From Nitrospinales bacterium (GTDB lineage: Bacteria; Nitrospinota; Nitrospinia; Nitrospinales; VA-1): a DNA stretch of 64,000 bases. The DNA lies in the NCBI GenBank assembly GCA_965262115.1, contig OZ253496.1, forward strand, positions 928,001 through 992,000, in the 5' to 3' direction. How positions within the stretch are numbered: the stretch's first letter is position 1; each line of letters starts with the position of its first letter. The translations under genes and the position numbers were made by a program. The notes below the pieces were generated by a model. It was not told the DNA's origin, did not search any database, and saw nothing but the letters and a program-made list of their open reading frames with translations. Positions 106 through 60,719 of the stretch are shown piece by piece.

Positions 106-1611
106 ATGACCACTGCAACCGCACCGCTTTCAGCGGTACAAGAATTCCTCGCCTCACCACAAAAACTATTGATCGATGGCAAGCGCGTCGACGCCGCCAA
201 CGGAGAAACTTTTGAAGTTCTGGACCCTTCTGACAACTCTGTCCTGACCCGCGTTCCCAAAGGTGAAAAGGAGGATATTGACCGGGCCGTTAAAGCGGCG
301 CGAAACGCCTTTGATAACGGACCCTGGAGGAAAATAACCGTTTCGGAACGGGGCAAGCTAATCTGGAAACTGGCCGACCTGATCGAACAGCGGAGCGAAG
401 AATTCGCGCAACTGGAAACTCTCGATAATGGAAAACCGCTTTCCATCGCCCGTGCCGCCGATGTGCCTCTTACTGTAGATCACTTCCGCTATTACGCCGG
501 AATGACGACCAAAATACATGGCGAAACGATTGACATCTCCGTTCCCTATGCGCCGGGTGCCGAGTTTCTCGATTTCACTTTACGCGAACCTATGGGCGTG
601 GTCGGACAGATCATCCCCTGGAACTTCCCCCTGCTCATGGCCACCTGGAAACTGGGCGTGGCTCTGGCAGCAGGCAATTGTGTGATCTTGAAACCGGCGG
701 AACAGACACCCCTATCCGCCTTGTATCTCGCTGGCCTGTTTGCCGAAGCGGGTTTCCCCGATGGAGTGGTCAATATCATCACTGGATTCGGCGATGCGGG
801 AGAAGCCCTCGCCAGCCATGAAAATGTCGACAAGGTCGCCTTCACCGGAAGCACCGAGGTAGGACATGAAATTGTCAAAGCCTCTGCCGGAAATTTAAAA
901 CGGGTTTCGCTGGAGTTGGGCGGCAAGTCGCCCAGCATTGTGTTCCCCGATGCCGACCTGGAAATGGCCGTCCAGGGAGTAGCGGACGCCATCTTTTTCA
1001 ACCATGGACAATGTTGCGCCGCGGGTTCACGCCTCCTGGTGCATGAAAATATTTATGAGGATCTAATCGGACGCGTTGCCGAGCTGGCAAATAACATCAA
1101 AGTCGGGCCGGGCATGTGCTCCGACACCGATATGGGCCCGCTGGTTTCACGGGAGCAACAGGAACGGGTATTGGACTACATCCGCTCCGGAGAGCAGCAA
1201 GGCGCCAAAACCCGTGCCGGTGGCAACGCTCTAAAGGGAATGGAATCGGGATGCTATGTTCAACCCACAGTTTTTGAAAATGTGAAACCGGAAATGAAAA
1301 TCGTGGCGGAAGAAATCTTCGGACCTGTCGTGGTGGCGGCACCCTTTGAAGACCTCGATGCTGTCATCGCTCGCGGCAACGATACACCTTATGGCCTCGC
1401 CGCCAGTGTGTGGACTAAAGACATCAACAAGGCACACAAAGTCGCAAAGGGACTTAAGGCCGGCACTGTGTGGGTGAACTGCCACAATATTTTTGACGCG
1501 GCAGCACCTTTCGGAGGCTACAAACATAGTGGGTTCGGAAGAGAAATGGGTATACACGCTCTGGAAAACTACACCCAAGTCAAAAACGTCATCCTCCAAC
1601 TCCACCACTAA
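106..1611 (+). CDS. NAD(P)-dependent aldehyde dehydrogenase
   Basis: IIPWNFP, FTGSTEVG, LELGGK, NHGQCCAAGSR and EEIFGPV motifs; ATG at 106 preceded by GGAG. Confidence 0.95.
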   Translation: MTTATAPLSAVQEFLASPQKLLIDGKRVDAANGETFEVLDPSDNSVLTRVPKGEKEDIDRAVKAARNAFDNGPWRKITVSERGKLIWKLADLIEQRSEEFAQLETLDNGKPLSIARAADVPLTVDHFRYYAGMTTKIHGETIDISVPYAPGAEFLDFTLREPMGVVGQIIPWNFPLLMATWKLGVALAAGNCVILKPAEQTPLSALYLAGLFAEAGFPDGVVNIITGFGDAGEALASHENVDKVAFTGSTEVGHEIVKASAGNLKRVSLELGGKSPSIVFPDADLEMAVQGVADAIFFNHGQCCAAGSRLLVHENIYEDLIGRVAELANNIKVGPGMCSDTDMGPLVSREQQERVLDYIRSGEQQGAKTRAGGNALKGMESGCYVQPTVFENVKPEMKIVAEEIFGPVVVAAPFEDLDAVIARGNDTPYGLAASVWTKDINKAHKVAKGLKAGTVWVNCHNIFDAAAPFGGYKHSGFGREMGIHALENYTQVKNVILQLHH

Positions 1612-1793
1612 GCCCGGCCAGCGGCCGGTAGGCGTAATATTCTTCCTCATCTGTGATGTTCTCTCTTCCTTGAACTTCATGCACGGCACGGGTACTTCGT
1701 GCCCTGAAAGGGTAAACTGGCAATACCCCGTTAAGCCGAGATAAGATTTGCTCGCCAAATAAAGTTATTGCTAGTTGGCCTCACGCCCAGTGG
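1605..1793. repeat. Modular palindromic repeat copy between convergent ALDH and histidine kinase
   Basis: CCACTAAG start, CTGTGA..TTCATGC..GGGTA module, GCAATA..GCCGAGATAA..TTATTGC, and minus-strand CCACTGGGCGTGAGGCCAACTAG; similar to loci at 4135, 35536 and 54558. Confidence 0.8.
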
Positions 1794-3192
1794 CGGGGAT
1801 GCGGATTTTGAAGCGGCTGCCCACACCCAGTTTGCTCTCGACTTCGATTGTTCCTTTATGAGCTTCGACAATATGCCTGCAGATGCTGAGCCCCAAGCCA
1901 CTGCCCCCTTCATCGCGTGACCGGGCTTTATCCACCCGGTAGAACCTATCAAAGATGGATGGCAGGTTTTTTTCTGGTATTCCGATGCCAGTATCTTGTA
2001 TCGACAACAAGGCAAACCCTGCTCCCTCCTGCAGAGAAACTTTCAACTCGCCGCCCGGTTGCGTGTATTTAATCCCATTGTGCAGAACATTCCAAACCAT
2101 TTGCCGGAGCCGCACCTCATCCCCATTGATTTTCACCGGCTCCAGAAACGCAATGACGATGGAGATATCTTTTTCACCGGCCAACACTTCGGCATGTTTG
2201 CATACTTCCTCTACCAGATCTCTCAAGTCCATCGCCTTGCAGTTGAGGAGAATATGGTTTTCGTCGGACTTGGAGAGGACAAACAAGTCTTCCAGCACTT
2301 TGGACATATAGTTGATCTCTTCTAGGTTACTGGCGATCACCTCCTGGTACTCTTTCGGTTCACGAGGTTTACTCAGCACCCATTCATTTTGCCCCTGTAA
2401 AACCGTCAACGGAGTCCTCAACTCATGCGAAGCATCACTGCTGAATTGCCGCATCTGAGCGAAAGAGTTTTCCAGCCGATCCATCATTTCATTAAAGGTC
2501 AGGGCCAGCTGGCCCAACTCATCCTTGACTTTTAGCACGGGAATGCGCTGGCTCAACTCCTGCCCCTGCCCGATATACCGGGCGGTCTGAATGATTTTGG
2601 ATATAGGTTTCAAAGCACGCCGGGCCAGAAATCGAGCGAACAGCGTAGCCAGAACAAGTACCGAGGGAACGGCGGTGAACAAGAATATTCTCAGGTTCTT
2701 CAGAGTCTCCCGCACCGCCTCCAATGAAGTCCCTACCTGAACCAGGTTGACCAGTTTTTTTTCCCGAATGATAGGCATGGTGATCACCCTAATGGGGTGA
2801 TTGCCATCCACAAGAAATGTTTCGTAGGAATTTTTACCCTCAAGGGCATCGGCATAGGCAGTTTGTGATAATGAGAACTTGGAGGCATCAATATTGTTAG
2901 ATCGCGACCCAACATTGCCGGAGCCATCATAGATTCTGTAAAACTTGTTGAGATTACTAGTTCCCATGAATCGCTCGAAAAGCTGGTCAAGTCCGGGCAA
3001 TGGTGAACGGTTGAATTTCATCACTGCCGAGGTAGCAACAACGGTGGCCGAAACCGTCAAGGAATTATCGACACTTTCATAAAGACGTTTAGAAAGAAAA
3101 TAATTTAGAAAAACACTGAATAGGATGAGGATGATGCCCAGTAACAGGATATACCAGGCCGTCAACCTGGACCGAATGGATTTGAAAGCCAT
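1771..3192 (-). CDS. Sensor histidine kinase, CusS/CzcS-like (2 TM, HAMP, HisKA, HATPase)
   Basis: DASHELRTPL H-box; N, G1, F and G2 boxes (NVLHNGIKY, DTGIGI, IFDRFYR, GSGLGL). Confidence 0.93.
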   Translation of the reverse strand: MAFKSIRSRLTAWYILLLGIILILFSVFLNYFLSKRLYESVDNSLTVSATVVATSAVMKFNRSPLPGLDQLFERFMGTSNLNKFYRIYDGSGNVGSRSNNIDASKFSLSQTAYADALEGKNSYETFLVDGNHPIRVITMPIIREKKLVNLVQVGTSLEAVRETLKNLRIFLFTAVPSVLVLATLFARFLARRALKPISKIIQTARYIGQGQELSQRIPVLKVKDELGQLALTFNEMMDRLENSFAQMRQFSSDASHELRTPLTVLQGQNEWVLSKPREPKEYQEVIASNLEEINYMSKVLEDLFVLSKSDENHILLNCKAMDLRDLVEEVCKHAEVLAGEKDISIVIAFLEPVKINGDEVRLRQMVWNVLHNGIKYTQPGGELKVSLQEGAGFALLSIQDTGIGIPEKNLPSIFDRFYRVDKARSRDEGGSGLGLSICRHIVEAHKGTIEVESKLGVGSRFKIRIPATGREAN

Positions 3193-3194
3193 AG

Positions 3195-3863
3195 CTATTC
3201 TTTCATAATGTATCCAACGCCCCGGAGGGTATGCAAAAGCTTTTGGGAATAGTTTTTATCGATTTTCTTTCTTAAATGATTGACGTAAACATCGATCACG
3301 TTGGTGAAGGTATCAAAATTATAATCCCAGACATGCTCGGCGATCATTGTTCTCGTCAGCACCTTGCCCTGATTCCGCAAGCAATATTCAAGCAAGCTGT
3401 ATTCTTTCCCGGTAAGTTCAATTTCCTGCTTTTCACGTTTCACTTTGTGACTGACCATATCCAGTGTCAGGTCGGCGATCTCCAGTGTCGTCCGGGCTTC
3501 GGCTTTTCCTCTGCGGAGCAGGACGCGTATCCTGGCCAAAAGTTCCGAAAATGCGAAAGGCTTGGTCAGATAATCATCGGCCCCTTTATTAAGGCCGGTC
3601 ACTTTGTCTTCTACGGAATCTTTAGCGGTGAGAAGAAGAATGGGGGTTTCGATCTTTCGGTCTCTCAAGGTGGATAAAACTTCCAGCCCGTCAATTTTTG
3701 GGAGCATGAGGTCCAGAATAATCAGGTCATACTGATTCTGCTCTCCGAGAAGCAGGCCCTCTTCCCCATCGGGCGCGACATCTACAGCGTATGTTTCCTC
3801 TTCAAGGCCTTTTTTAATGAAACCGGAAACTTTTTTCTCGTCTTCTACAATCAATATACGCAT
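3195..3863 (-). CDS. OmpR-family response regulator, CusR/CopR-like
   Basis: VEDE, ILDLMLP and GADDYLTKPF receiver motifs; winged-helix VWDYNFD..NVIDVYV..LRGVGY. Confidence 0.95.
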   Translation of the reverse strand: MRILIVEDEKKVSGFIKKGLEEETYAVDVAPDGEEGLLLGEQNQYDLIILDLMLPKIDGLEVLSTLRDRKIETPILLLTAKDSVEDKVTGLNKGADDYLTKPFAFSELLARIRVLLRRGKAEARTTLEIADLTLDMVSHKVKREKQEIELTGKEYSLLEYCLRNQGKVLTRTMIAEHVWDYNFDTFTNVIDVYVNHLRKKIDKNYSQKLLHTLRGVGYIMKE

Positions 3864-4070
3864 TTAGCCATCCCATTTTTTTTGCACTTTATGAAGCTCT
3901 ATCTCTCCTTTCAACATTTCAACATGTTTTTCACAATCTTTTTGGATCGCAGAATACATGGCCCGGCAACTTTCATCATTGGCATCAATCATGGCCTGCT
4001 TGCATATTTTCACCGCCTCATGGGAGGCTTCCAAGGCTTTTAAAATATTGTCGTTGAACTTTTTACTCAT
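3864..4070 (-). CDS. Small two-helix half-ferritin-like hypothetical protein with three Cys
   Basis: 68-aa ORF whose stop abuts the regulator ATG; pattern A..SHEA..IC...D..CR..Y..I.KDCEKH..ML. Confidence 0.7.
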   Translation of the reverse strand: MSKKFNDNILKALEASHEAVKICKQAMIDANDESCRAMYSAIQKDCEKHVEMLKGEIELHKVQKKWDG

Positions 4071-4134
4071 TTTTGACCCTTAATTATTCCGATCCCCATT
4101 CTATCATTAATTCTCTGCTGTTAAAGGGCTAATC

Positions 4135-4330
4135 CCACTAGCCGTGGGCCTGTGAAACCCCTTCCACAAATTTCATGCCCCGGGGGGTACAATGTGCAAT
4201 GACATTTATGAACAAGCAAAAAGTTGTCTCGGCTTAATGGGGTCTTATCCCATCCCCATAAGCCGAGAAAAAATTTGTCGACAATAAACAGCTATTGCTC
4301 ATTACCACCGGGCGTTGCCCGGTTCCTAGC
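4135..4330. repeat. Modular palindromic repeat, head-to-head double copy
   Basis: CCACTAGCCGTGGGCC, AAATTTCATG..GGGGTACAATG module, GCAAT..TCTCGGCTTAATGGGG / CCCCATAAGCCGAGA..CTATTGC. Confidence 0.8.
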
Positions 4331-4565
4331 GGTCGGCCAGTTCCCGCTCGAAAAGAAGCTTTACTAAAATGATTCCCAACGCCGCCCCGATAACAGGTAG
4401 AGCGTTGATCAATTCAAGCAGGTATTTTCCCATAAATCCGAAGTTCTCGATCAGGTAATGGGCAAACTTCACACCGGACTGATCCAGCCAGTAAAAAATA
4501 AGGTTGATGCCCATCCCGCAGACAAACCCGATAAAAGCCCCAAAACCATAATATGCGTATTTCAT
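4326..4565 (-). CDS. Small hypothetical membrane protein (2 TM)
   Basis: 79-aa ORF with two hydrophobic Gly-rich segments. Confidence 0.65.
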   Translation of the reverse strand: MKYAYYGFGAFIGFVCGMGINLIFYWLDQSGVKFAHYLIENFGFMGKYLLELINALPVIGAALGIILVKLLFERELADR

Positions 4566-4693
4566 GATTGATTTCCACCGATGGAACGCATTGATTCAAC
4601 TGGAAAAGTCTGCAAGACTTGGATTATGATGTTAAAAACACTATGCCATATTATACATACCTTGGTTCCATTTTATAATCATTAGGAAATGAA

Positions 4694-5434
4694 ATGCGGC
4701 TCGCAAACAAAACGGCCATCATCACCGGCGGTGGATCGGGAATAGGCCAAGCCTGTGCATGGGCTTTCTACCAGGAAGGCGCTAATGTGGTTTTATTTGG
4801 TCGAAGAGAAGACAAACTAAAAGAAACAGCCCAGGAACTAGGTTCCCGGGCCATGACGGTCCAGGGAGATATGACCCAAAGCAAAGACCTCGACCGGCTG
4901 GTCCAGGAAACCCAAAGCAAGTTCCATCGCATCGACATACTGGTCAACAATGCCGGTCTTTTCAAAGGTGCTCCTCTGCACGAAATTTCTGATGAACAGT
5001 ACGATGAAATGATGGACATCAATATGAGAGCGGTGTTCCAATTGACCCGCAAGGTGCTCCCAGTGATGATGGAACAAAAAGGTGGGAGCATCATCCATAT
5101 CAGTTCCATCCTCGGCATCATCGCCGTGCCTCAGGTGGCGGCTTATAATATTTCCAAAGGAGCCCTGATTCAACTGAGCCGGTCCATCGCTGTGGAATAC
5201 GGCAGTTATGGCATCCGCTCCAACGCCATTTGTCCCGGCCTGATAGAAACCGACATGACCGCCGACCTTATGAAGGACGAGGCGTTGATGCAGGAATGGA
5301 GTAAGGATTACCCGATAGGTCGGTTCGGAAAACCTGAGGATGTGGCCGATGCCTGCCTTTTTTTAGCCAGCGATGAATCCTCCTTTATAACCGGCACGGT
5401 TCTTCCGGTGGATGGCGGTTTCACAGCCCACTAG
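4694..5434 (+). CDS. Short-chain dehydrogenase/reductase (SDR)
   Basis: TGGGSGIG, NNAG, YNISK and DGG motifs. Confidence 0.95.
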   Translation: MRLANKTAIITGGGSGIGQACAWAFYQEGANVVLFGRREDKLKETAQELGSRAMTVQGDMTQSKDLDRLVQETQSKFHRIDILVNNAGLFKGAPLHEISDEQYDEMMDINMRAVFQLTRKVLPVMMEQKGGSIIHISSILGIIAVPQVAAYNISKGALIQLSRSIAVEYGSYGIRSNAICPGLIETDMTADLMKDEALMQEWSKDYPIGRFGKPEDVADACLFLASDESSFITGTVLPVDGGFTAH

Positions 5435-5533
5435 CCCCTTCGCAGGGGAGGCGACTAGCAATAATGTATGAGCAAGCAAAAATCTTTCTCGGCCCAATAA
5501 AACCATTAGTCATGTCCTGTGGCGGTTCGCCAC

Positions 5534-5829
5534 CCACTCGCCGTGGGGGCAAATAGCAATGGCTCATAGAGCCGAGATATAATTGATACCAGAAAACAGC
5601 CATTGCAAGTCACCGGCGGAGGTTCTCCGTCCACTCGCCGTGGGGGCAAATAGCAATGGCTCATAGAGCCGGGAGCATAATTGATACCAGAAAACAGCCA
5701 TTGCAAGTCACCGACTGAGGTTCTCCGCCCACTCGCCGTGGGGGCAAATAGCAATGGCTCATAGAGCCGGGAGCATAATTGATACCAGAAAACAGCCATT
5801 GCAAGTCACCGACTGAGGTTCTCCGCCCA
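5534..5829. repeat. Tandem array of three 97-98 bp units of the repeat family
   Basis: Units start CCACTCGCCGTGGGGGC at 5534, 5631 and 5729; units 2 and 3 are identical; a related degenerate segment lies at 5428-5533. Confidence 0.95.
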
Positions 5830-5842
5830 TTGAGGACAGTGC

Positions 5843-5871
5843 TTGACGGAACCCCTGCAGATGATTAAAAT
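5843..5871 (+). promoter_or_regulatory. Putative sigma70 promoter for gatB
   Basis: TTGACG-N17-TAAAAT. Confidence 0.6.
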
Positions 5872-5942
5872 CAGAGCCACTTGAAAAATCTCAACATACA
5901 CCGACCTTGTCACGCGAAAGGCTTGAGGATACGGATTCATTT

Positions 5943-7379
5943 ATGAAGTACGAGACTGTTATTGGGCTGGAAGTTCACGTCCAAATTAAAACCAAAACGA
6001 AAATATTCTGTTCCTGCTCCACCGAATTCGGCAAACCCCCGAACGCGAATACCTGTCCGATTTGTCTGGGAATGCCCGGAGTTCTTCCCGTTTTGAATAA
6101 ACGTTTTCTAGATGCCGCCATGAAGGCCTGCCTGGCGACTCATTGCACAATTGAACCAATGAACCGTTTTGCAAGGAAAAACTATTTTTATCCCGACCTT
6201 CCCAAAGGCTACCAGATCTCCCAATTCGAACTCCCTTTGGGAACGAACGGATTCATCAACATCAATGTAAACGGCACTAAGAAAAGGATCGGATTGACCC
6301 GCATTCATATGGAAGAAGATGCGGGAAAACTGATCCATGGGGAAAATCTGGGAAGTCCGGGGAAAAGCTATGTCGACTTTAATCGAACCGGGGTCCCACT
6401 ATGTGAAGTGGTCAGCGAGCCCGACCTGCGCTCGCCGGAAGAAGCCCGGGCCTACCTCACCGAGTTGAAAGCCATTCTGGAATACACCGAAGTCAGCGAT
6501 TGTAATATGGAAGAAGGAAGCCTGCGCTGTGACGCCAACGTCTCCATTCGTCCCGTTGGGCAAAAAGAGTTAGGAACCCGTGCAGAGTTGAAAAACCTCA
6601 ACTCCTTCAAATTCGTTCAGAAGGCTATTGAGTATGAAGTGGAACGGCAAACGAAGATTTTGGATCAGGGAGAGAGTGTAAAACAGGAAACCCGGCTTTA
6701 TGATTCGGACCGGGGCGAGACCTTCTCCATGCGAAGCAAAGAAGAAGCGCACGATTATCGTTATTTTCCCGAGCCGGACCTGGTTCCCATAGTTATCGAT
6801 GACGCATGGGTGGAAAAAATTCGCAAAACAATTCCCGAACTCCCCGAACAGAAACGCAAGCGTTTTACCAGCAGTTATAAAATCCCCGAATACGACGCCG
6901 GGGTTTTGACCTCCTCGAAGCCTCTGGCAGATTATTTCGAGCAGTGTGCAGCCCAGTTTCCGCAACCTAAAATTATCAGCAACTGGGTAATGGGAGACTT
7001 GTTGCGGGAATTGAAAAAGGATGGCAGGAGCATTAAAGAGTGCCCAGTTTCGCCCTCCGCACTGGTGAACCTGCTCAAACTGATCGATTCTGGAACGATC
7101 AGCGGTAATATCGCCAAAGGGGTTTTTGAAGAAATGTATCAAACGCAAAAACCGGCCGACCGTATCGTTGAGGAAAAGGGACTGAAACAAATCACCGATA
7201 GTTCTGCCATAGAAAAAATTGTCGATGAAATAATTCAAGCCAACCCCAGCCAGGTGGAGGAGTTCAAGGGCGGCAAAGAAAAAGTACTCGGTTTTCTGGT
7301 CGGTCAAATCATGAAGGCGAGCAAAGGCAAAGCCAACCCGGGCATGGTCAACAAATTACTGAAAGAAAAAATAGGGTGA
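5943..7379 (+). CDS. gatB: Asp-tRNA(Asn)/Glu-tRNA(Gln) amidotransferase subunit B
   Basis: [32 protein letters not shown] and [13 protein letters not shown] at 5943. Confidence 0.97.
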
Positions 7380-7927
7380 TGGCACAATCAATCTTCTACC
7401 CATCCAAAATTCTAAATTTGAAACCCGTTTCCTTTGTTGCGTTATTTCTTTTATTGGGAATTCTAAGTTCGAGCGCTCTTGTGGGCCCTGTAGAATCCGA
7501 TGACAAGCGTTATCTGGATCATGGCGACGGCACAATCACCGACACAAAAACCGGACTGATGTGGATGAAAAAAGATTCCTATCTTCATTCCGGCCACTGG
7601 CTCAACTGGCTTGAGGCTCACGAATATATCCGGAAACTCAATGATGAGGGATTTGCCCAATACATTGACTGGCAGTTGCCTTCCACTGAAGAACTGAAAA
7701 CCCTTTACGAACCGGAAAAGGTCAACAGTTCCCAGGCAGGAAAAGAAATGAAAATCCACGCGGACCCAATATTTGAAAAAAATGGGAGCGGCTCCCTGTG
7801 GTCGGCAGAGGAAAATGGGCGCTACAACGCATTTGGAGTGGTCTTCAATACCGGCGCGGTGTTTAACAGCAATAAAAGATCCCGATCTCGAAAGGCCACT
7901 CGGGCCGTTCGAATCAATACGGACTGA
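7376..7927 (+). CDS. Exported DUF1566 (Lcl C-terminal) domain protein
   Basis: Signal-like N-terminus; [16 protein letters not shown] and [10 protein letters not shown] motifs. Confidence 0.85.
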
Positions 7928-7959
7928 CACAGCTACTTTCTTAAGGCAGAAATTAAAAA

Positions 7960-9576
7960 ATGACATCTCTTAAAAAGGCAATATTAGTAACCGTTCTGCT
8001 CCTTGCAACCGTTGCTCCCGCAAACGCGACCTACCCTTTGCCGGATGTTGCGCACTGGGATCTTTCGGTCTCCAATGAAAGAAATGATCCAGACTACCAG
8101 AAGGTCCGGGATCTGGTTGCGCAAAAACAATTTGACGAAGCACTTGCAATTCTTGGCAGGAAAATCACCGAACAACCTAAAGAAGCCACTCCTGATATTC
8201 TGAAAGCAGTGATTTTAAATGAAAAGGATGAGCCCAAGAAAGCTCTGGAAGTTCTGCTGACCGGATTTAAAAAGGAACGCCAGCACCCTGCCCTGCATTT
8301 TGCTTTCTGCCAGATCCACCGCAAACTGGGCAACGGCCTGATCTCGGAAAAGGCCTGTATCATCGCCGCCCAGCAACACCATCAAGATCCTCTAGCACAT
8401 TATGAGTTTGCTTTAACTTTGATGGCTCGAGGCAAGGCAAAAGAAGCTAATAAGGAGTTGGCGGAGAGCACCAGGCTGGACCCAAAAAATTCAACCTACC
8501 CTTACGAAAGGGGGATGATTTTTAATTATCTGAATCAGAATAATGAGGCCGAAAAATCTTTCAAGCGCGCGTTTTCACTCGACAAGAGCAATGTTGAAGC
8601 GGCTTACCAGCTCGCTTATCTTTATGCCACACGGAGCGACAAAGAACAGGCGGAATCCTATATCAACCACATTCTGGACAACCATCGGGATCAACCCAAG
8701 GCGGAGTCGGCTAAACTGCTCAAAGAATATATTTATAAAAATGAAACCGACAAATTGCCCTTGAAAGTTGTCCCGGGACAATATCATTTGAGCCGGTCAA
8801 AAACCCTTTACCAGTCCAAACAATTCGGTTTATGCATCATTGAGGCGGAAACCGCCGCACGACTGAGCCCCGATGACCTGGCAGTCCAGGAGATTCTTGT
8901 TGGACTCCACAGTATGTTTCTGCGGTTGGACATGGCGGAAAAATCTGTCGAGCAGTTTATTGAATACGCCAAAGACGACAACAAATTCAAGAGCCGAGGA
9001 CACCAGGAATTGGCAGACATAAAGGTTCTTCGAGGTCACTTGAGTAAAGCCAAAGAACACTATGAAAAGGCCAAGAGTCTGGGGGATCCTAACGGAATAG
9101 CCAAGGCCTCTCTGGATGAATTTCCAGAGAACATTAATTCAATAGAACGGCAACCTTTGAACCCAAATATTTTGTTAATTAATCCTACCGAAGCGTTGAA
9201 CAGAAAGGGGGAGATTTTTGCTCATTTTGGAATGTACCAACGAGCTCTGGGTATCTATTCCATGGTTTTAAGAATGGACCCCACCAATCTCACCACTTTG
9301 CTCAATACCGCCACCGCCAATTATAAAAACGAAAAATACACCCGAGCTATCTCTATTCTCGAAAGATTGTTTGTGATTCATCCCAACCACGAACATATCA
9401 TCGCCCACCGGTTACTACTGGCCCGGTCTTACGTCATGAACGGGGATCTTGGAGACGGAATCAAAAATCTTGAAATAGTTATGAAACTGCGCCCAAACAT
9501 GAAAAAAGTCATCGCCTCAGACCCGACTTTTGAGAAGTTAAGGGCTCTCGAATCTTTCAGAATTTTAGTTCAGTAA
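7960..9576 (+). CDS. Exported tetratricopeptide repeat protein
   Basis: Signal peptide and many TPR-like helix pairs (e.g. A..L..LDP.N). Confidence 0.85.
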   Translation: MTSLKKAILVTVLLLATVAPANATYPLPDVAHWDLSVSNERNDPDYQKVRDLVAQKQFDEALAILGRKITEQPKEATPDILKAVILNEKDEPKKALEVLLTGFKKERQHPALHFAFCQIHRKLGNGLISEKACIIAAQQHHQDPLAHYEFALTLMARGKAKEANKELAESTRLDPKNSTYPYERGMIFNYLNQNNEAEKSFKRAFSLDKSNVEAAYQLAYLYATRSDKEQAESYINHILDNHRDQPKAESAKLLKEYIYKNETDKLPLKVVPGQYHLSRSKTLYQSKQFGLCIIEAETAARLSPDDLAVQEILVGLHSMFLRLDMAEKSVEQFIEYAKDDNKFKSRGHQELADIKVLRGHLSKAKEHYEKAKSLGDPNGIAKASLDEFPENINSIERQPLNPNILLINPTEALNRKGEIFAHFGMYQRALGIYSMVLRMDPTNLTTLLNTATANYKNEKYTRAISILERLFVIHPNHEHIIAHRLLLARSYVMNGDLGDGIKNLEIVMKLRPNMKKVIASDPTFEKLRALESFRILVQ

Positions 9577-9701
9577 TCCCCATGTCTCAACAAAAAGTTA
9601 AGTTTGACTTTAAATTTACGTTCCTGTCTAATGCAGCACAATGTCACTGCTTTATTTTTTTCGTAAAGACCCCATGAACCCAAGGCACGGGGAGATAACA
9701 C

Positions 9702-10157
9702 ATGACTACACTCCAATATCCAACTAAGGGTTGGAAGTTTTTTCCAGTTTTCACATCTTTTCTCTCATTATTTTTTCTCCTGATTCAAACTCCAGCAACG
9801 TTTGCCCAAGGTATTTGTACGGATGGGTTGCAGGAATTACAAAAAAGCCAGGGAATTATTCAGACTAAGGGAGGGATTTGGGGGTATCTTGAACAATCTT
9901 CCGCTCTGAAAGACAAATCCATATTAGGACTGCAAATTGACGGCAAACTGCAACGCCTGATCGTTTCCTTTGAAAGCCTTTGTCAAGAAGGCAAAACCCC
10001 TACTCCAAAGCTTTATAATTTAATTTTAAACCTGATTGGGGATGCCAGAATGATTTTCAATAGACCTGCTGATCGGCAACCCAAAGAAAAGGTGTTGGAA
10101 AAATTGAACGGTCTAAACAAAAACATTGATGAACTGCTGGCCCAACTGCCCAGTTAA
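9702..10157 (+). CDS. Exported hypothetical helical protein
   Basis: GGAG RBS, signal peptide ending ..TFA, two Cys. Confidence 0.7.
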   Translation: MTTLQYPTKGWKFFPVFTSFLSLFFLLIQTPATFAQGICTDGLQELQKSQGIIQTKGGIWGYLEQSSALKDKSILGLQIDGKLQRLIVSFESLCQEGKTPTPKLYNLILNLIGDARMIFNRPADRQPKEKVLEKLNGLNKNIDELLAQLPS

Positions 10158-10163
10158 GCAACC

Positions 10164-10636
10164 ATGGCTGAATTGAAAGAAGGAAAAAAGGCGCCGGACT
10201 TTACGGCGATTGATCAGAACGGAAAAAAATCAAACTCAGTTCTTTTAAAGGTAAGAAGCATGTCGTGCTTTATTTTTACCCTAAAGACATGACTCCCGGA
10301 TGCACCACGCAAGCCTGCGACTTCCGCGACCAGCACAAAAAATTTAAAAATACTGTCGTCCTCGGCGTTAGCATTGATTCAACCGAAAGGCACCAGAAGT
10401 TTATTGAAAAATACGACCTTCCTTTTACTCTCCTTGCTGACACCGATAAAAAAGTGGTGCAAAAATACGGAGTCTGGCAGGAAAAGAAACTCTATGGGAA
10501 AACCTTTATGGGAATTGTTCGAACAACCTTCATCATCGACAAGACAGGCACGATCCAAAAAATATTCCCCAAGGTCAAAGTAAAAACCCACATCGAAGAA
10601 GTCCTTTCCGTATTGAAGGAAATCTACAAGGCGTAG
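10164..10636 (+). pseudogene. bcp: Peroxiredoxin Bcp/PrxQ with a 1-nt frameshift in an A7 run (pseudogene, slippage or sequencing error)
   Basis: MAELKEGKKAPDFTAIDQNGKK from 10164 joins IKLSSFKGKKHVVLYFYPKDMTPGCTTQAC only if one A is added at 10223-10229. Confidence 0.85.
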
Positions 10637-10641
10637 CCTTG

Positions 10642-10742
10642 CCACTCGGCGTAGGGCCAATGAACAATAACTTTCGCTGGCAAACAATAGATTAAATCGG
10701 CTTGATGATCCGTACTACCTGCCCCCGGCGGCTCGCCGGGCC
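10642..10742. repeat. Modular palindromic repeat copy between bcp and pepP
   Basis: CCACTCGGCGTAGGGCCAATGAACAATAAC, and minus-strand GCCCGGCGAGCCGCCGG as at 41525. Confidence 0.7.
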
Positions 10743-12133
10743 ATTAATTTCTCAATCTGTTTTACAGTTCTGGGAATCTTGCTGGAAAGATTCAAACAGC
10801 CGGTTGCTGTCATCACAAGATTGTCCTCAATGCGAATGCCTATCTTTTCATCATAGTTTTTTCCGTTCAGGCGCAGACGAAACTCCCCATACAACCCGGG
10901 TTCATTGCTGATCATCCAGCCCGGCTTCATGGGGTGCTTGGCGTAATTACGAAAAGGATCCCCATCATGCTCCTGTTCCCCCATCAAGTGGCTCACCCCG
11001 TGCGGTCTTCCTTTATATTGCAACTTAACCTTTCCCCCAATCGCCTTGAAATCGCGTTCCAGCCCCTCATTGACCTTATCCCAGCATACGGTGTTCAACT
11101 CTTCAATCGTTAGCCCAGCCCGCGCCTTTTTCTCTACCGCAATATGGGCTTTAAGAACGATTTCATAAAGTATTTTCTGCATGGGGTTGAACCGCCCCGA
11201 CACAGGAAAAGTCCTAGTGATATCGGCATGCATGGTCATCCAGCGTATTCCAAAATCGATCAGCATCATTTCGCTTTTTGAAAAATTATCATCATTCTTT
11301 GTATAGTGGAGAATGGTTGCGTTAGCTCCTGATGCCACGATGGAAGGATAGCTAAGGCCAAAAGGGGTATTCATCAGCATCTGGCCTTCGAGAAACCCCT
11401 GCACCTGACATTCATTTTTAAAGTTACTGAAGTTTTTCAGCATCACCTTATATCCGCCGTTAGTTATATCTTGAGCTTTCCGGGCATTGGCAATATCATA
11501 TTTATCCAGCGGCAGGCGCAGTTCAAAATGACTCTTCATAATATTTTTCAAAGCCGCTTTTGGAGCTTTCCAAGACCGCAACCACCCCTCAAGTTTCCTT
11601 TTGAAATCAAAATTATGATCCGTGGTGATGCTAGAGACTTTGCCCCCTCGGGTGCCTTCCAGCCAAAACATTCCCAGAGTTTTTTTCTTCTGCTTCATGA
11701 ACCGCTCTTTCAGGACATCCTTAAATTCACGGATATCGCGAACATCCTGGATTCCCGTAACCGACCGCACTTCCCTCAAGCTTTGCTCATCCCCGACCCC
11801 AAAACGGACCCCCTCCAAAAACTCAAGGATTCGATCCTTGTTATCCACAAATAAAATTTCATCCGATACTTTTGAACCCGGGTCCAGCAACAGGATGACG
11901 TTATTCTGGTTAATGCCGGTTAAATACATCATTGCCGGCTCCTGATAAGTGGGGCAATAGGCATAGGACCAGGTCGTCTTTCCACCCGGACCATAAGGGA
12001 CCCCGGCAACGGCCATGAGTCGGCCTTCCTTCCCCATCAACTTCTTTCTTCTTTCGCGAAACCTCCGTTTAGCAAAGACCCCCGCCCCGCCATCCCGGAA
12101 TATTCCTGTATAAATTTTTTTCGATATCTTCAT
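10715..12133 (-). CDS. pepP: Xaa-Pro aminopeptidase (M24B)
   Basis: LHY, LIDFG, ADITRT, HGVSH..G..EHD, NEPGLY and GIRIED metal-ligand motifs. Confidence 0.88.
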   Translation of the reverse strand: MKISKKIYTGIFRDGGAGVFAKRRFRERRKKLMGKEGRLMAVAGVPYGPGGKTTWSYAYCPTYQEPAMMYLTGINQNNVILLLDPGSKVSDEILFVDNKDRILEFLEGVRFGVGDEQSLREVRSVTGIQDVRDIREFKDVLKERFMKQKKKTLGMFWLEGTRGGKVSSITTDHNFDFKRKLEGWLRSWKAPKAALKNIMKSHFELRLPLDKYDIANARKAQDITNGGYKVMLKNFSNFKNECQVQGFLEGQMLMNTPFGLSYPSIVASGANATILHYTKNDDNFSKSEMMLIDFGIRWMTMHADITRTFPVSGRFNPMQKILYEIVLKAHIAVEKKARAGLTIEELNTVCWDKVNEGLERDFKAIGGKVKLQYKGRPHGVSHLMGEQEHDGDPFRNYAKHPMKPGWMISNEPGLYGEFRLRLNGKNYDEKIGIRIEDNLVMTATGCLNLSSKIPRTVKQIEKLMARRAAGGR

Positions 12134-33420: not shown

Positions 33421-34419
33421 ATGGAACTGGACAAGGTGATCGGGAAAATACTGGAGGGTTATCAACCGGCATGCGTGATCATGACGGCGAATGAGTTAAA
33501 ACTGTTCGACCAGCTCAAACAACCGACAGCAGCAGCACAAGTCGCAAAGACCTTGAATCTGGACCCGGAAGCCACCGAACGCCTGCTCAACGCCCTCACT
33601 TCGCTGGAAATTGTTACCAAGGAAAACCAGACCTATCACCTGCCAGAAGCCGCTCACGAATATCTCATAACAGGCGGGAGCCATTCTCTTCAGCAGTGGA
33701 TTCAGCTCTCGGCCGACCTTTATCCGGTTTGGGGCCAGCTCTCCTCTTTTATAAAATCCGGTATTCTTATTAAAAGTATCATGGAGATGCTAGGCGGTGA
33801 TCCGCATAAAATGAGGGCGTTTACCGATGCCATGCACGACAAGGCTCTCAAAGCCACCTGGCTGATCGCCCGCGAAATTCCTGTTGGGGACGCAAAAACC
33901 CTGCTGGATGTCGGCGGAGGACCAGGAACCTATTCGCTGGAATGGTGCAAACTGCACAACCATCTTAAAGCCACTGTTTTCGATATTGCACCGGTTCTGG
34001 AAGTCACAAAAACTTATATCGAATCCTATGAATTGCAGGGTCGGGTTGATGCCAAACCGGGTGATTTCCATAAAGATGATTTGGGAGACAGTCAATACGA
34101 TCTGGTGCTCATGGCTAATATCCTGCACATGTACGACGCTGATATGAGTCGAGCCCTGGTCACCAAAGCCGTGAAAGCCGTGAAACCGGGTGGCCGCATT
34201 ATCATCCACGGTTTCTGCACCAATGAAAACCAGACCGGCCCTTTGGGTGACACGCTGTTCAGCCTCAATATTGGCATGCTGACCGAAGGTGGACGGGCAC
34301 ACCCTGTTCAGGAAAAAATCGACTGGCTTAAGGGAACTGGAGTTTCCGATATTCGCCATTTCCGTATCGATGCCATCCCCACCGGAGTCGTAACCGCCAC
34401 TAGGCGTGGAGCCAACTAG
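33421..34419 (+). CDS. O-methyltransferase family 2 (dimerisation domain plus Methyltransf_2)
   Basis: FTDAMH, LLDVGGGPG, GDF and NILH; ATG at 33421. Confidence 0.88.
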   Translation: MELDKVIGKILEGYQPACVIMTANELKLFDQLKQPTAAAQVAKTLNLDPEATERLLNALTSLEIVTKENQTYHLPEAAHEYLITGGSHSLQQWIQLSADLYPVWGQLSSFIKSGILIKSIMEMLGGDPHKMRAFTDAMHDKALKATWLIAREIPVGDAKTLLDVGGGPGTYSLEWCKLHNHLKATVFDIAPVLEVTKTYIESYELQGRVDAKPGDFHKDDLGDSQYDLVLMANILHMYDADMSRALVTKAVKAVKPGGRIIIHGFCTNENQTGPLGDTLFSLNIGMLTEGGRAHPVQEKIDWLKGTGVSDIRHFRIDAIPTGVVTATRRGAN

Positions 34420-34560
34420 CAATAGCATTTACTGCAATCAAACCGTGTTGGCGGCTTAACAAGCTCTTGCTATACGCATGGGAGAAGCAGACTTTTTCTC
34501 AGACCGAGACAACCCTTGCCAGCCGATAAAACTCTTGCTAGTTGGCCCCACGCCTAGTGG
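34397..34560. repeat. Inverted pair of repeat elements overlapping both convergent stop codons
   Basis: CCACTAGGCGTGGAGCCAACTAGCAATAG at 34397 and a near-perfect reverse complement ending at 34560. Confidence 0.9.
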
Positions 34561-35452: not shown

Positions 35453-35535
35453 TAAGCACCCCTTGACAGAGGAGTCAGATAGCCGTGATATTCTTCCTTA
35501 GCCTCCGTGCCCCAAATGGGTAAATGGCGGGTTAG

Positions 35536-35636
35536 GCCGAGATAGATCGTTGCTCGCCGCACCAGGCTATTGCTCATTATACCCCTTCGGAGCATGAAAT
35601 TTGCGGAGGGAGAATATCACAGCCTCACGCTTAGTG
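35536..35636 (-). repeat. Modular palindromic repeat copy downstream of hisH
   Basis: Minus strand reads CACTAAGCGTGAGGCTGTG..AAATTTCATGCTCCGAAGGGGTATAATGAGCAATAG..TCTCGGC. Confidence 0.85.
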
Positions 35637-40188: not shown

Positions 40189-41514
40189 ATGCATAGTCTC
40201 ACTGATACCTGGGTCGGTTATGCCTCTATCATCTGTTTTTGTATGGCCTATTCCCTGGTCATATTCGAAGAACAGATCCATATGCGGAAATCCAAACCGG
40301 TCATTTTGATCGGTTGTTTTATGTGGGCTCTCATTGGCCTCTACGAAGCCATGCAGGGGGGCGATGGAAACGCGCATCACTTCGTCAAAGAGTTGATCGG
40401 CGAAATCGGTGAGCTATTTTTCTTTCTCCTGGTAGCAATGACCTACATCAATACCCTTGATGAAAGGAATGTCTTTAAAGCGTTAAGGTCCTGGTTGCTC
40501 AAAAAGGGCCTGGGGTTTAAAAAATTATTCTGGGCGACAGGAGGAATCACGTTCCTGCTTTCACCCATTGCGGACAACCTGACCAGCGCCCTATTGATGT
40601 CCACCGTAGCGCTAGCAGTGAGTAATGGCAATGGGCGTTTCATTGTTCCTGCATTCGTCAATATTGTGGTCGCGGCCAACGCAGGAGGAGTATGGAGTCC
40701 CTTCGGAGATATCACCACCCTGATGGTCTGGACTTCGGGAAAAGTTGCTACCATGGATTTCTCCTATCTGTTACTGCCTTCCCTCGTCAACTGGATCGTT
40801 CCTGCAAGCATCATATATTTCGCCGTTCCAGATGAGTATCCTGAAGTGGGAGAAGAGGAAGTAAAGCTCAAACCGGGAGCCAGGGTCATCATTGGACTGG
40901 GCATATTCACTGTTGCCACTGCAGTATCTTTTCATCAATTCCTCCACCTTCCCCCTTTCCTGGGAATGATGTTCGGGCTAGGCTTATTGATGGTAAAAGG
41001 ATGGTATTTAAAACGCTGGGGAGAGAAAAAATATCTTGAGACAATGGGCATTTCTGACGATCGAAGGAACCAACCCCGCCGCTTTGATATTTTCACCAAA
41101 GTGGAAGGAGTGGAGTTTGATACCCTGCTTTTCTTTTTCGGCGTTCTCACCGCCGTAGGGGCGTTGCAGTACATTGGCTATCTGGCACTGGCCAGTGAAA
41201 ACATGTATGGAACCCTAGGGCCAACAACCTCCAATATAATTATTGGTGTCCTTTCCGCTATTGTTGACAACATCCCTGTCATGTACGCGGTTCTAAAAAT
41301 GAGCCCGGAAATGGGTCTTGATCAATGGCTATTGATCACCCTGACCTGCGGGGTTGGAGGCAGTCTACTCTCCGTGGGGTCTGCAGCAGGGGTTGCAGTA
41401 ATGGGCGTTGACCGAAAATATTATACGTTCATGTCGCATTTGAAATGGGCTCCCGTCATCGCGCTGGGTTATATAGCCAGCATTGTTTGCTGGTACTTTG
41501 TAACACCGCACTAG
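40189..41514 (+). CDS. nhaD: NhaD-type Na+/H+ antiporter
   Basis: KSKP, ADNLT, AANAGG.WSPFGDITT, VDNIP and GSAAGV. Confidence 0.92.
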   Translation: MHSLTDTWVGYASIICFCMAYSLVIFEEQIHMRKSKPVILIGCFMWALIGLYEAMQGGDGNAHHFVKELIGEIGELFFFLLVAMTYINTLDERNVFKALRSWLLKKGLGFKKLFWATGGITFLLSPIADNLTSALLMSTVALAVSNGNGRFIVPAFVNIVVAANAGGVWSPFGDITTLMVWTSGKVATMDFSYLLLPSLVNWIVPASIIYFAVPDEYPEVGEEEVKLKPGARVIIGLGIFTVATAVSFHQFLHLPPFLGMMFGLGLLMVKGWYLKRWGEKKYLETMGISDDRRNQPRRFDIFTKVEGVEFDTLLFFFGVLTAVGALQYIGYLALASENMYGTLGPTTSNIIIGVLSAIVDNIPVMYAVLKMSPEMGLDQWLLITLTCGVGGSLLSVGSAAGVAVMGVDRKYYTFMSHLKWAPVIALGYIASIVCWYFVTPH

Positions 41515-41635
41515 CCCACTCGGCGCCCGGCGAGCCGCCGGAGGGAGGGGAGAACTAGCAACGACTTCATTGAACCGAGATAACCCTTTGTTAGCATGAT
41601 AAAGCTATTGCCAACTCGCCCCACGCAGAGGGGCC
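41509..41635. repeat. Modular palindromic repeat between convergent nhaD and comF
   Basis: CACTAG-CCCACTCGGCG-CCCGGCGAGCCGCCGG..CTAGCAA..CCGAGATAA..CTATTGC..GCCCCACGCAGAGGGG. Confidence 0.8.
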
Positions 41636-44794: not shown

Positions 44795-47594
<2,800 letters not shown>

Positions 47595-47962: not shown

Positions 47963-47966
47963 TTTA

Positions 47967-48818: not shown

Positions 48819-48904
48819 CGGTATTAATCCGTTTCGTTTTCATCTATAATAATAAGCGAGTGATTATTCACCCCTCAAGTCATTTCACCAACACATCCAA
48901 CCTT

Positions 48905-49363
48905 ATGCGGAAACCAAACCATTTACGAACAGTCATAGCAATTCTTTTGCTTCTTCTTGTTGCTTCCGTCTCCTGTAAAACGCTGGGCGGCTTCCATAAA
49001 AACCAGGAAGACCTGGACTTAAGCATCAAGGCGTATAACCATGAGTTTGAAAGCAAAATGATCGACAGGAGTGCCCGTTTCATCCACCCGACTTACCGCT
49101 CGGAATATATGGCTAAATCTCCGGAGATAGCCAAACGCATCACTATCTTTGAAGCAGCCGTTTTAGACATCAAACTTTTTAATAACGGGGTACCGCTCGC
49201 CATTGGATCCGAAAAAGATTTTAACCGGGCCATTGTCGTCATCCGCTACCAAATGGCCCTATTGCCCAGCACCAAATTACAAACCCTTAACATCGAGCAG
49301 GAATGGCTGCTCTATCAGGGGCAATGGGTTATCATCCCCGACCTGAAAGCGTTTCTTGGATAA
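48905..49363 (+). CDS. Putative lipoprotein
   Basis: ATG at 48905; basic plus hydrophobic signal ending ASVSC. Confidence 0.7.
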   Translation: MRKPNHLRTVIAILLLLLVASVSCKTLGGFHKNQEDLDLSIKAYNHEFESKMIDRSARFIHPTYRSEYMAKSPEIAKRITIFEAAVLDIKLFNNGVPLAIGSEKDFNRAIVVIRYQMALLPSTKLQTLNIEQEWLLYQGQWVIIPDLKAFLG

Positions 49364-49379
49364 CAGGCCATGGCAATGG

Positions 49380-50081: not shown

Positions 50082-50094
50082 AACCTGAGCCTTT

Positions 50095-50285
50095 CCATTG
50101 GGCGTGGGACCAATGAGCAATCTCTTTTTCTGGATAACGAATGGTCTAGACGGCTAAACAAACTATTGTCCTTTGCCATCACGGCACAAAGCTTTCGAAG
50201 GATACATCGACTACCCACCTCTGGGTCAATCGGCGGTCACATATGCGTTACCGCCGCATTGCCACCGGCGAATCGCCGGTTAGTG
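50095..50285. repeat. Degenerate repeat-family copies between nuoM and sfsA
   Basis: CCATTGGGCGTGGGACCAATGAGCAAT at 50095; minus-strand CCACTAA followed by a CCGGCGA-T-TCGCCGG hairpin and GCAAT at the nuoM stop. Confidence 0.65.
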
Positions 50286-51794: not shown

Positions 51795-51805
51795 AGTTTT
51801 TCCGG

Positions 51806-53674: not shown

Positions 53675-53678
53675 AAGA

Positions 53679-53978: not shown

Positions 53979-53980
53979 AA

Positions 53981-54526: not shown

Positions 54527-54557
54527 TCATCCACTCCTGAAAATAGAACAACCTCTA

Positions 54558-54690
54558 CCACTCGGCGTGGGGCTGTAAAACCCTTTCCATAAATTTCATG
54601 CCACGGAGGGGTACAATGAGCAATAGCCCCTTAGTCCAAAATAAACTCTTTATGCGCTGAAAATACTATTTAAGCCGCAAGCGGCTGTAT
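54558..54690 (+). repeat. Modular palindromic repeat copy between nuoI and nuoJ
   Basis: CCACTCGGCGTGGGGCTGTAAAACCCTTTCCATAAATTTCATGCCACGGAGGGGTACAATGAGCAATAG closely matches 4135-4200. Confidence 0.85.
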
Positions 54691-54701
54691 CGGCGCCATT
54701 T

Positions 54702-55190: not shown

Positions 55191-55201
55191 AGCTCATCCC
55201 C

Positions 55202-56254: not shown

Positions 56255-56295
56255 ACTCCAACCACTCCAAAAATATTTACCGTTTTAAAATAAAT

Positions 56296-58797: not shown

Positions 58798-58804
58798 AAT
58801 TGCC

Positions 58805-60061: not shown

Positions 60062-60063
60062 CG

Positions 60064-60540
60064 TCAGTCCAAAGAATCGAGAATTTGGTCGATGCGCTGC
60101 TCGGTCAAATCCCCATAATAAGTGTCGTTGATCCGCATCATCGGCGCGTTCGTACAATCTGCTAGGCATTCTTCTCGATGCAGGGTGAACTTTTCATCCG
60201 ATGTGGTTTCGCCCACCTTGATATTAAGTTTCTTGGCCGTGTGCTCAAGCAGTTTGTCGCAACCGTTCAACTGGCAACTGATGTTGATGCAGAAAAGAAT
60301 CATGTATTTCCCGACCTTCTCGGCGTGATACATCGTGTAAAACGACATGACCGACTGCACATAGGCCGGCGAGCAATCCAGCTTTTCACTGATCGCCACC
60401 ATGGCCTCCGGCGAGATCGCTCTCTCAGCCCGCTGGACCAGAGTCAGCAAAGGCAACATCGCCGACTTCTTAAAAGGATATTTGGATAAAATACCCGTAA
60501 TTTCCTTTTCCTGCTTTTCAGAAAACGTGAATCCAGACAT
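60064..60540 (-). CDS. nuoE: NADH-quinone oxidoreductase subunit E
   Basis: SFYTMY, CxxxxC and ECLADC..AP. Confidence 0.95.
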   Translation of the reverse strand: MSGFTFSEKQEKEITGILSKYPFKKSAMLPLLTLVQRAERAISPEAMVAISEKLDCSPAYVQSVMSFYTMYHAEKVGKYMILFCINISCQLNGCDKLLEHTAKKLNIKVGETTSDEKFTLHREECLADCTNAPMMRINDTYYGDLTEQRIDQILDSLD

Positions 60541-60565
60541 TAACAAATTTTCCCTATAAAATTCT

Positions 60566-60719
60566 ACGGAGAACCTCCGCTGGCAAGTGCAATATCCTTA
60601 CCCTGCGAACAAACATTCTCTCGGCTCAATGAGCCATTGAATGAGCAAAGCCTTTTAAAGCTGAGATAAACTTTTGCCAGCCCAATAAAACTATTGCATG
60701 CTGGCCCCACGCCTAGTGG
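60566..60719 (-). repeat. Modular palindromic repeat between nuoD and nuoE
   Basis: Minus strand reads CCACTAGGCGTGGGGC..GCAATAG..TCTCAGC, then CAATGGCTCATTGAGCCGAGA..TTGC..GCGGAGGTTCTCCGT, matching the tandem unit at 5534. Confidence 0.85.

Follow-up and report, generated by a model that had tools for sequence, protein, structure and literature searches.

The 64,000-nucleotide stretch of a Nitrospinales genome analysed here (the window; G000:C1:928001-992000, where G000 denotes the 2.68-Mb assembly, 94% complete, that contains it) carries at ten loci a short repeat system that recurs across the genome. The system has three layers: a unit of ~100 bp, in which a core of ~65 bp (core C) is capped at both ends by GC-rich hairpins; an independent module of 39-41 bp (module B); and an IS110 insertion sequence (IS) residing within the loop of B. 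It is active now, as judged from dispersed copies that are 100% identical and from the fact that four in five core-bearing spacers have been rebuilt between strains 95% alike. How do such tiny elements spread? With modest confidence, we suggest that they are nested selfish repeats, moved as folded, end-joined single-stranded DNA into hairpins by a putative hairpin-recognising nicking and joining enzyme.

Architecture of the units, module B and the IS110 passenger

Core and B profiles together with eight hairpin patterns delineate ~520 merged clusters in G000, which amount to 41.6 kb or ~1.6% of the genome. The core C profile, built on 82 seed copies, gave 270 matches, the module B profile 369 and the end-hairpin patterns 305, each against none in the reversed genome. 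In the window, 14 core matches reach a score of at least 14, compared to none in 20 shuffled windows. A first-pass annotation, made from the letters of the window alone, had described a dispersed modular palindromic repeat at ten loci; direct inspection and the core profile confirm the modules at all ten, in the places where it had put them (Table 1).

The consensus of core C comprises GCAA at its left, a nearly fixed AGCCGAGA at the centre and ATTGC at its right. What had been annotated as a module C and its complement is real, albeit as one 65-bp core read on either strand. The two arms of the core are alike, yet they show no covariation, pairing being at the level expected from the columns at each position. 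As prediction gave no consensus fold either, we rejected a folded-hairpin model of the core. Self-comparison of the profile peaks at a direct offset of 20 bp and at an inverted match of positions 46-65 with 11-30; going by the sequence, the core is better read as two direct 20-bp repeats plus one inverted copy.

The capping hairpins come in about eight interchangeable types (A, A2, D, D2, E, F, F2/F3 and G) held at fixed spacing, and the annotated modules A and D, while genuine hairpins, are members of this set rather than two distinct modules. At right ends, a stem of at least 4 bp is present in 142/190 cases (45.6 in shuffles), represented by 68 different stems, 100 of the 142 beginning 8-9 nt after TTGC; left ends carry such a stem in 97/144 cases, compared to 33 in shuffles. 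Together, these counts indicate that hairpin shape and spacing are kept, while the sequence is free. Read outwards, 68% of the right-end loops start with G and 45% read G..A; GNA and GNNA mini-hairpins are unusually stable in DNA, according to the available text of PMC13037366. The four bases preceding the stems are GTAG, GTGG, CGTC or TGTC in 6/513 hairpins, the actual tags being GGCC, GCCC, GCCA, ACCA, GAGT, GCCT and CTTC. A second, shorter core, GGCRGTCGCG...CCGCRTTGCC, also links hairpins (window 50222-50264; G000:C1:375440, and in the flank of 2384322).

Core C has a narrow range. BLAST located it in 20/22 same-genus genomes and in 0/18 others; a pattern search in 17/22 same-genus genomes and in none of 47 genomes from 11 other genera, that is, in 18/70 genomes of the family and in one Nitrospinaceae genus. 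Two genomes of the same genus, 97% and 83% complete, yielded no core. When a 25-base core pattern was run against 185,579 species genomes, all 50 of the 50 loci bore the title Nitrospina, Nitrospinaceae, Nitrospinales or Nitrospinota. Lone hairpins lacking a core were seen by eye in other genera. Viral contigs gave no match to the core pattern and one to the B pattern (L278:3001-3041, near the end of a short hydrophobic frame on a 50-kb contig), and plasmid and phage collections yielded no match to window positions 34390-34570.

Module B reads TACCC...ATCAC[A/G], with a G-N-A loop in 184/204 copies, and occurs in 30/70 family genomes and 5/12 genera, at 1-234 pattern matches per genome. Its sites are junctions between core and hairpin, the arms of hairpins, the loop of another B (27 cases) and hairpin A (8 cases), as well as a miniature inverted-repeat transposable element (MITE) and the hairpins flanking DUF559 and GIY-YIG genes. 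Every IS3 copy that spans the respective site contains B and no empty IS3 allele was seen, the reading frame suggesting that B was inserted there. The stub of an older hairpin precedes 39/358 B and 15/376 other hairpins, compared to 0.2% expected by chance. With a range wider than that of C and entry into so many unrelated repeats, B makes this more than one family, in contrast to the single family of the first-pass annotation. The latter overestimated the length of the insert (~45 bp) and counted four copies; there are six, at four loci, including a B-in-B at 1633-1714 and a further B at 35485-35522, immediately beyond the coordinates it had given.

Two features of B are notable. Firstly, its last base and position 16 form T-A, C-G or A-T in 144/161 distinct G000 sequences and in 146/163 of those in a relative, G013 (2x2 tables, p ~1e-23 and ~1e-27, respectively). 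This end-foot pair has the second-highest mutual information of all position pairs, after a stem pair, with several middle sequences showing the paired switch. As the pair prolongs the terminal stem only when the ends of B are joined, it points to an end-joined single strand; head-to-tail B-B junctions number 69. Secondly, where B lies within a B loop, positions +3/+4 read CT in 15/21 cases in G000 and 4/5 in G013, compared to 0/105 and 0/248 empty loops, and the same change accompanies B within the arm of hairpin A (4/5 versus 0/88 empty). Orthologous empty alleles read GG at this site. The change occurs with several B subtypes in the two targets, and other target types lack it. It may stem from a heteroduplex of four bases that was resolved in favour of the donor; alternatively, it may be the flank of a founder, carried along by co-conversion. 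A guide-like complementarity of the variable middle of B to its target was also considered; judged by eye, some sites fit and others do not, and the idea was dropped.

The third layer, IS110, is represented in G000 by 26 left and 26 right ends with 18 and 12 distinct flanks, respectively. At 24/26 left junctions the flank ends in TACCCC(C)T(T), and at 26/26 right junctions it starts with (T/G)CGGGGC, which is the loop of B; remnants in G013 and in a further relative, G019, share this target. The element has the DEDD and Transposase_20 domains and a CT core, and its left non-coding end contains segments matching the target and its own junction, in a layout like that of IS621 in the available text of PMC11208160. 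Guides predicted by eye match the left target at 9/9, the right target at 8/9, the left donor at 8/9 and the right donor at 4 bases. With a presence in only 5/23 genus genomes, IS110 uses module B and does not move it.

Turnover between relatives and position relative to genes

We compared G000 with 2.4 of the 2.86 Mb of G013, whose flanking genes are 95% identical, over 507 anchored spacers, scoring a spacer as restructured if its worst 40-column window fell below 60% identity. By this measure, 63/77 spacers with core C are restructured, compared to 55/324 that are repeat-free in both genomes; after size matching, the figures are 40/53 and 33/206 (odds ratio 16, p 4e-16). Spacers repeat-free in G000 alone were set apart (n=24, of which 22 restructured), and those with other repeats are often restructured as well (57/82). 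In the window, seven of the ten loci differ structurally from G013, three are conserved and none is wholly empty. Taken together, these data bear out a BIME-like mosaic (bacterial interspersed mosaic element) that is non-coding and mobile, or at least rapidly rewritten, as the first-pass annotation had it, and not a set of conserved terminators.

What kinds of events underlie this turnover? Near-identical dispersed copies in G000 share 106 bp at 100% identity in one case (1686257 and 2164390) and 95 bp at 97% and 131 bp at 98% in others, and are bounded mostly by hairpin ends. Some orthologous sites differ by an entire unit, with microhomology of 0-5 bp (G000 296100, 2045123 and 2444142). Other events replace the distal half of a unit along with its hairpin, place a unit in opposite orientation at the same site, or change the copy number of an array. 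B insertions are exact: six of 108 B copies in anchored spacers face a clean empty allele, one of the six being a tandem copy, with no duplication (an earlier, smaller set of 16 and 11 anchored sites, which this one replaces, had given two). Empty sites for whole units and for B thus exist, but the target duplications that the first-pass annotation would have looked for alongside them do not appear at a fixed length at either type of site. In addition to G013, G019 was compared at a few loci, and contigs of runs X5 and X8 over window positions 1-12000.

With respect to genes, 216/240 C clusters are intergenic, and convergent gaps are over-represented among these (58/216, compared to 209/1179 gaps overall). 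A same-strand stop codon lies within 13 nt of 52/254 non-B hairpins but of only 2.5% of random intergenic positions, and the stop-coupled hairpins fall at few registers (+1, +4 and -6); for 187/2096 genes, a non-B cluster lies no more than 30 nt from the gene end. Module B lacks this coupling (6/217). Repeated local replacement that halts at the end of the gene, or that uses the hairpin's own TAG or TAA, might account for it.

Candidate mechanisms of spread

In the reading that we favour, the active strand would be the one with the G-N-A loop at its 3' end, which folds, is cut and has its ends joined. Module B would pass through such an end-joined intermediate, circular or tandem, its stem spanning the junction. 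New units would insert into loops and arms of pre-existing hairpins, of which stubs would remain, repeated local replacement would ratchet units against stop codons, and host recombination would swap halves and amplify tandem arrays. The proposed enzyme would act like TnpA-REP or IS608 TnpA, yet without being a detectable Y1_Tnp protein. Models for BIMEs that involve excised single-stranded circles and rolling amplification predict the same mosaic, as far as the available text of PMC3333891 goes. For the question of how tiny bacterial repeats spread without a REP-associated tyrosine transposase (RAYT; REP, repetitive extragenic palindrome), the fixed ends, the covarying end-foot pair, the two-base scar and the clades with and without each module provide handles for an enzyme search. 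The clean nesting at three levels (unit, B in unit, RNA-guided IS110 in B) adds to the interest of the system.

Several observations weigh against this reading. HUH chemistry does not predict the change from GG to CT, and no circular form was seen. The 121 distinct B junctions show a weak consensus only and no fixed target word, and because B copies are related, the covariation counts overstate independence. Of 33 core pairs at orthologous sites, both sides differ in 15, neither side in 11 and a single side in 7, with some one-sided differences stemming from B insertions; this mixture establishes neither a single breakpoint nor a fixed crossover at GCCGAG. Several unit indels, which no outgroup polarises, may be deletions between short repeats. 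As for the enzyme, Y1_Tnp is absent from G000 and from G013 (a single contig, 98% complete); it occurs in 7/23 genus genomes, where eight flanking loci hold one weak core match (score 14). TnpB was not detected in G000, and none of 26 module-flanked strain-specific genes that we listed is nuclease- or transposase-like by eye.

Further searches gave a similar picture. G000 has no Y2_Tnp (one fragment in 23 genus genomes, though with 0/14 control genomes positive the sensitivity of this search is unproven), no resolvase (2/23 genus genomes) and no intact reverse transcriptase (one broken match; any match in 8/23). Of 108 open reading frames (ORFs) of at least 100 aa listed for the window, 55 were scanned and, in agreement with the first-pass annotation, contained no transposase. 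No mobiliser thus emerged among the families searched, which did not include Cas1, relaxases, Rep proteins and IS5/IS30 ends. The single RAYT/HUH- or IS-type mobiliser that had been envisaged is not borne out: Y1_Tnp, Y2_Tnp, TnpB and resolvase are unmatched in the genome, and IS110, parasitic on B, is too patchy for this role, with B lacking CT on both sides.

It is possible, though rather unlikely, that the chemistry is of an undescribed kind, in which a 40-base dumbbell closes on itself, inserts precisely into almost any DNA hairpin and writes CT into its target as a two-base edit, the core-hairpin unit being moved by the same non-Y1 enzyme. If true, finding the enzyme would explain orphan tiny repeats such as small dispersed repeats (SDRs) and tag-less REPs, and provide a minimal structure-guided DNA writer.

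Could there be no dedicated enzyme at all? Old relics might be kept in flux if the host nicks hairpins and converts homeologous copies into one another, with slippage and indels at microhomologies adding to the change. We regard this, too, as doubtful. The failure to find a cognate enzyme among the families searched would fit, as would the patchwork appearance of many orthologous pairs, the variable copy number of tandem arrays and the position of several unit indels between repeats of 2-9 bp, and the CT change could be the co-converted flank of a founder allele. However, the ends of B are fixed and its targets are as unrelated as IS3, a MITE and hairpins of the SRM and DUF559 types, with no homology at the ends of B, and the CT change comes with several B subtypes in two different targets. 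Moreover, G000 has MutS, which should restrain conversion among copies with a similarity of 65-80%. The strand bias of the loops and their fixed spacing imply that a folding-specific factor selects them.

Less probable still is an RNA-templated route, in which transcripts would be cut back as far as the foot of a 3' hairpin and copied into nicked targets, target-primed reverse transcription producing one exact and one homologous junction. All modules terminate flush at a hairpin, a conserved G-T pair in the B stem would suit RNA, and replacements run from the hairpin end into the core; the frequency of non-B hairpins near same-strand stops would find an explanation as well. Against this stand the absence of such coupling for B and the state of the reverse transcriptase, which is broken in G000, confined to 8/23 genus genomes and accompanied by a nearby core at 0/10 such loci. 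Furthermore, the G-N-A triloop is a motif of DNA rather than of RNA.

We consider it very unlikely that core C is a site-specific recombination or protein-binding site, at which a protein resembling a tyrosine recombinase would exchange halves and cut out small circles. The peaks in the self-comparison of the core are compatible with such a site, arms without covariation are what duplex binding sites would show, two joints in run X5 fall within or 6 nt beyond GCCGAG, and a Xer-like gene is flanked by units. Yet breakpoints are not concentrated at the core and module B is left unexplained, and the Xer-like protein lacks its C-terminal His and Tyr, occurs in 10/12 genera (C in one) and was not found in G013. 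Lastly, terminators or structural RNAs kept by the host, which enrichment in convergent gaps and at stop codons might have suggested, are largely refuted and barely credible, given that units are replaced or missing at most orthologous sites, that the core has neither a consensus fold, arm covariation nor an Rfam match, and that two same-genus genomes appear to do without it.

Known repeat families, co-resident elements and the window loci

Overall, the system works like REP/BIME repeats but is no member of them by tag or enzyme; nor is it a MITE or SRM. With DDE MITEs it shares a size of ~100 bp, the non-coding nature and a degenerate inverted motif at the core ends; it differs in that units have no fixed duplication, ends vary and arms do not covary. 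The label 'MITE-like' therefore had to be abandoned for these modules, as there is neither a fixed target duplication nor a covarying terminal repeat. The true MITE of this genome looks quite different. It measures 200-260 bp, has GAGA(C/G)CTTTGCATAA ends and 8-10-bp duplications, is polymorphic relative to G013 (G000:C1:2270253, 2309830 and 2525914, plus G013 alleles), often lands in F-type hairpins and carries B copies and CGTC-type hairpins. Among IS ends, those of IS3, IS110 and one IS1595 copy gave no match.

Reportedly, the Nostoc repeats SDR1-8 of Elhai et al. 2008 are 21-27 bp in length. By their description in the available text of PMC4390886, they resemble module B in being tiny and in inserting exactly, without duplication, into their own kind and into other repeats, with no known enzyme; B differs in its 39-41 bp, terminal G-N-A hairpin, end-foot covariation and two-base scar.

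REP/BIME/REPIN repeats with TnpA-REP (RAYT) share short GC hairpins, inverted doublets around a linker, an extragenic location mostly 3' of genes, strain-variable mosaic or tandem arrays, the lack of a fixed target duplication and targeting by IS110 (PMC3333891, PMC6006769, PMC3116915). In contrast, the Nitrospina hairpins lack the GTAG tag and are interchangeable around a conserved linker, and G000 has no RAYT, none in the genus being flanked by the repeats. Ends and gene-less derivatives of IS200/IS605 are alike in their end hairpins, strand-specific folding, absence of duplication and 5'-foot motif (PMC6006769, PMC3333891), but the hairpins here are terminal rather than subterminal, there is no fixed target of 4-5 bases, and TnpA and TnpB are lacking in G000. 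IS621 and related REP-targeting, bridge-RNA-bearing IS110 elements have both IS110 domains, a CT core, a guide-like left end and a site in a repeat hairpin in common with the passenger (PMC11208160), and the targeting of repeats by IS110 is already known; what differs is that the target in G000, module B, is itself mobile, that the passenger is patchy, and that the bridge RNA is predicted from sequence.

CGTC REPs and SRM with their Ssn GIY-YIG nucleases are tagged hairpin repeats without a transposase, and are themselves present in G000, where B inserts into them (PMC3733652, PMC11893778); the repeats that bracket the nuclease genes are of a kind of their own, and not hairpins A-G, C or, except as an insert, B. 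The published SRM pattern matched 0/240 C clusters and 0/10 window loci, although this test is weak as the nuclease-flanking repeats themselves were mostly missed (5 versus 7 in the control). In the window, 0/4227 Rfam families reached the gathering score; with the REP tag and SRM pattern tests failing as well, the earlier view that no known REP-type family is recognisable stands for the families tested. A literature search limited to articles without their supplements returned no description of such repeats, REP or MITE, in Nitrospina or Nitrospinaceae, and none of DUF559 with palindromic repeats.

Other resident genes were considered as mobilisers and discarded. IS1595 and HNH (three matches each) have no modules within 1.2 kb. 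DUF559 occurs in 26/70 family genomes, has hairpins of its own and is absent from several C- or B-rich genomes; seven DUF559 genes in G000 lie within inverted purine/pyrimidine hairpins (G000:C1:377385, 660936, 735444, 1034378, 1582297, 1589978 and 2140509), one type of which hairpin F resembles. Small GIY-YIG genes, in 20/70 family genomes, are flanked by their own repeats: CGTC-type hairpins stand on both sides in 20/20 (L258-L277), compared to 0/2000 random pairs, with core matches at 2/20 loci. This is the Ssn/SRM arrangement of the available text of PMC11893778, with variants mostly outside the published pattern. The range of the truncated Xer-like protein does not match that of C. Its single-copy gene, Xer/integron-integrase-like and flanked by units (L175:1501-2283; G000:C1:2164612-2165394), stops just past the HxLR motif, before the catalytic His and Tyr; found in 42/61 family genomes, the product is likely a domesticated DNA-binding protein. 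Finally, a triple nest of IS3 > B > IS110 has itself been copied, as a composite of 2.5 kb, and is found at G000:C1:656654-659143 and some ten further sites, some composites having an internal deletion in the IS110 gene.

Table 1. Repeat loci of the window, their composition and their counterparts in related strains (window positions)
Feature	Position	Strand	Composition	In relatives
Locus 1	1605..1793		aldehyde dehydrogenase stop + hairpin stub (gene ends 1611), D-like hairpin 1614-1628, B-in-B, C, A 1781-1793	wholly different unit in G013; run X5: 1746-1805 swapped for 67 other letters
Module B of locus 1, outer, split	1633..1714	- (TACCC-first strand)	second B nested 1652-1694	
Core C of locus 1	1711..1779	+	profile match, E 1.9e-17	
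Locus 2	4135..4330		A2 4135-4147, B 4151-4189, C(-) 4190-4257, C(+) 4256-4305, D2 4308-4322	left part diverged from G013 much more than flanks
Module B of locus 2	4151..4189	-	at hairpin/core junction	
Locus 3	5428..5829		A2 stub giving TAG stop (gene ends 5434), F2 5435-5448, C(-) 5450-5503, E 5519-5533, then array	single unit in G013; run X8 omits 5531-5727
Array of locus 3	after 5533, within 5428..5829		three tandem A2-C-E units, 97-98 bp each	
Locus 4	10642..10742		A 10642-10654, C(-) 10656-10713, D 10725-10739	conserved in G013
Locus 5	34397..34560		inverted doublet: A 34397-34409, C(-) 34411-34475, C(+) 34493-34546, A 34548-34560	distal half of second core + hairpin replaced in G019
Locus 6 (extended)	35485..35636		B(-) 35485-35522, C(+) 35518-35579, B(+) 35580-35621, A 35625-35636 with TAA stop	conserved in G013
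Locus 7	41509..41635		two hairpin stubs 41509-41526 (TAG stop 41514), D 41527-41541, C(+) 41549-41616, hairpin 41619-41633	another unit in place in G013
Locus 8	50095..50285		A 50095-50107, diverged C(-) 50110-50177, short second core ~50222-50264, D 50265-50279	C unit in opposite orientation in G013
Locus 9	54558..54690		in nuo operon; A 54558-54570, B(-) 54574-54613, core remnant from 54614	conserved in G013
Locus 10	60566..60719		in nuo operon; E 60566-60580, C(-) 60585-60639, C(+) 60640-60705, A 60707-60719 (abuts nuoD stop)	G013 without second core (59 bp shorter)

The window itself encodes housekeeping genes, including most of the nuo operon: 52/55 scanned ORFs have housekeeping Pfam families, and three have neither a Pfam nor an NCBIfam match (44795-46504, 569 aa; 9702-10157, 151 aa; 48686-49363, 225 aa). 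Elsewhere on the contig, the first 100 kb (G000:C1:1-100000) contain no module, have 40% GC, long simple and tandem repeats and the broken reverse transcriptase, and are possibly foreign DNA joined onto it. Both rRNA spacers harbour a C unit between tRNA-Ile and tRNA-Ala (G000:C1:780698-780767 and 794067-794136). Within the nuo operon, loci 9 and 10 occupy the nuoI-nuoJ and nuoD-nuoE gaps, respectively, where the two units could affect transcript stability.

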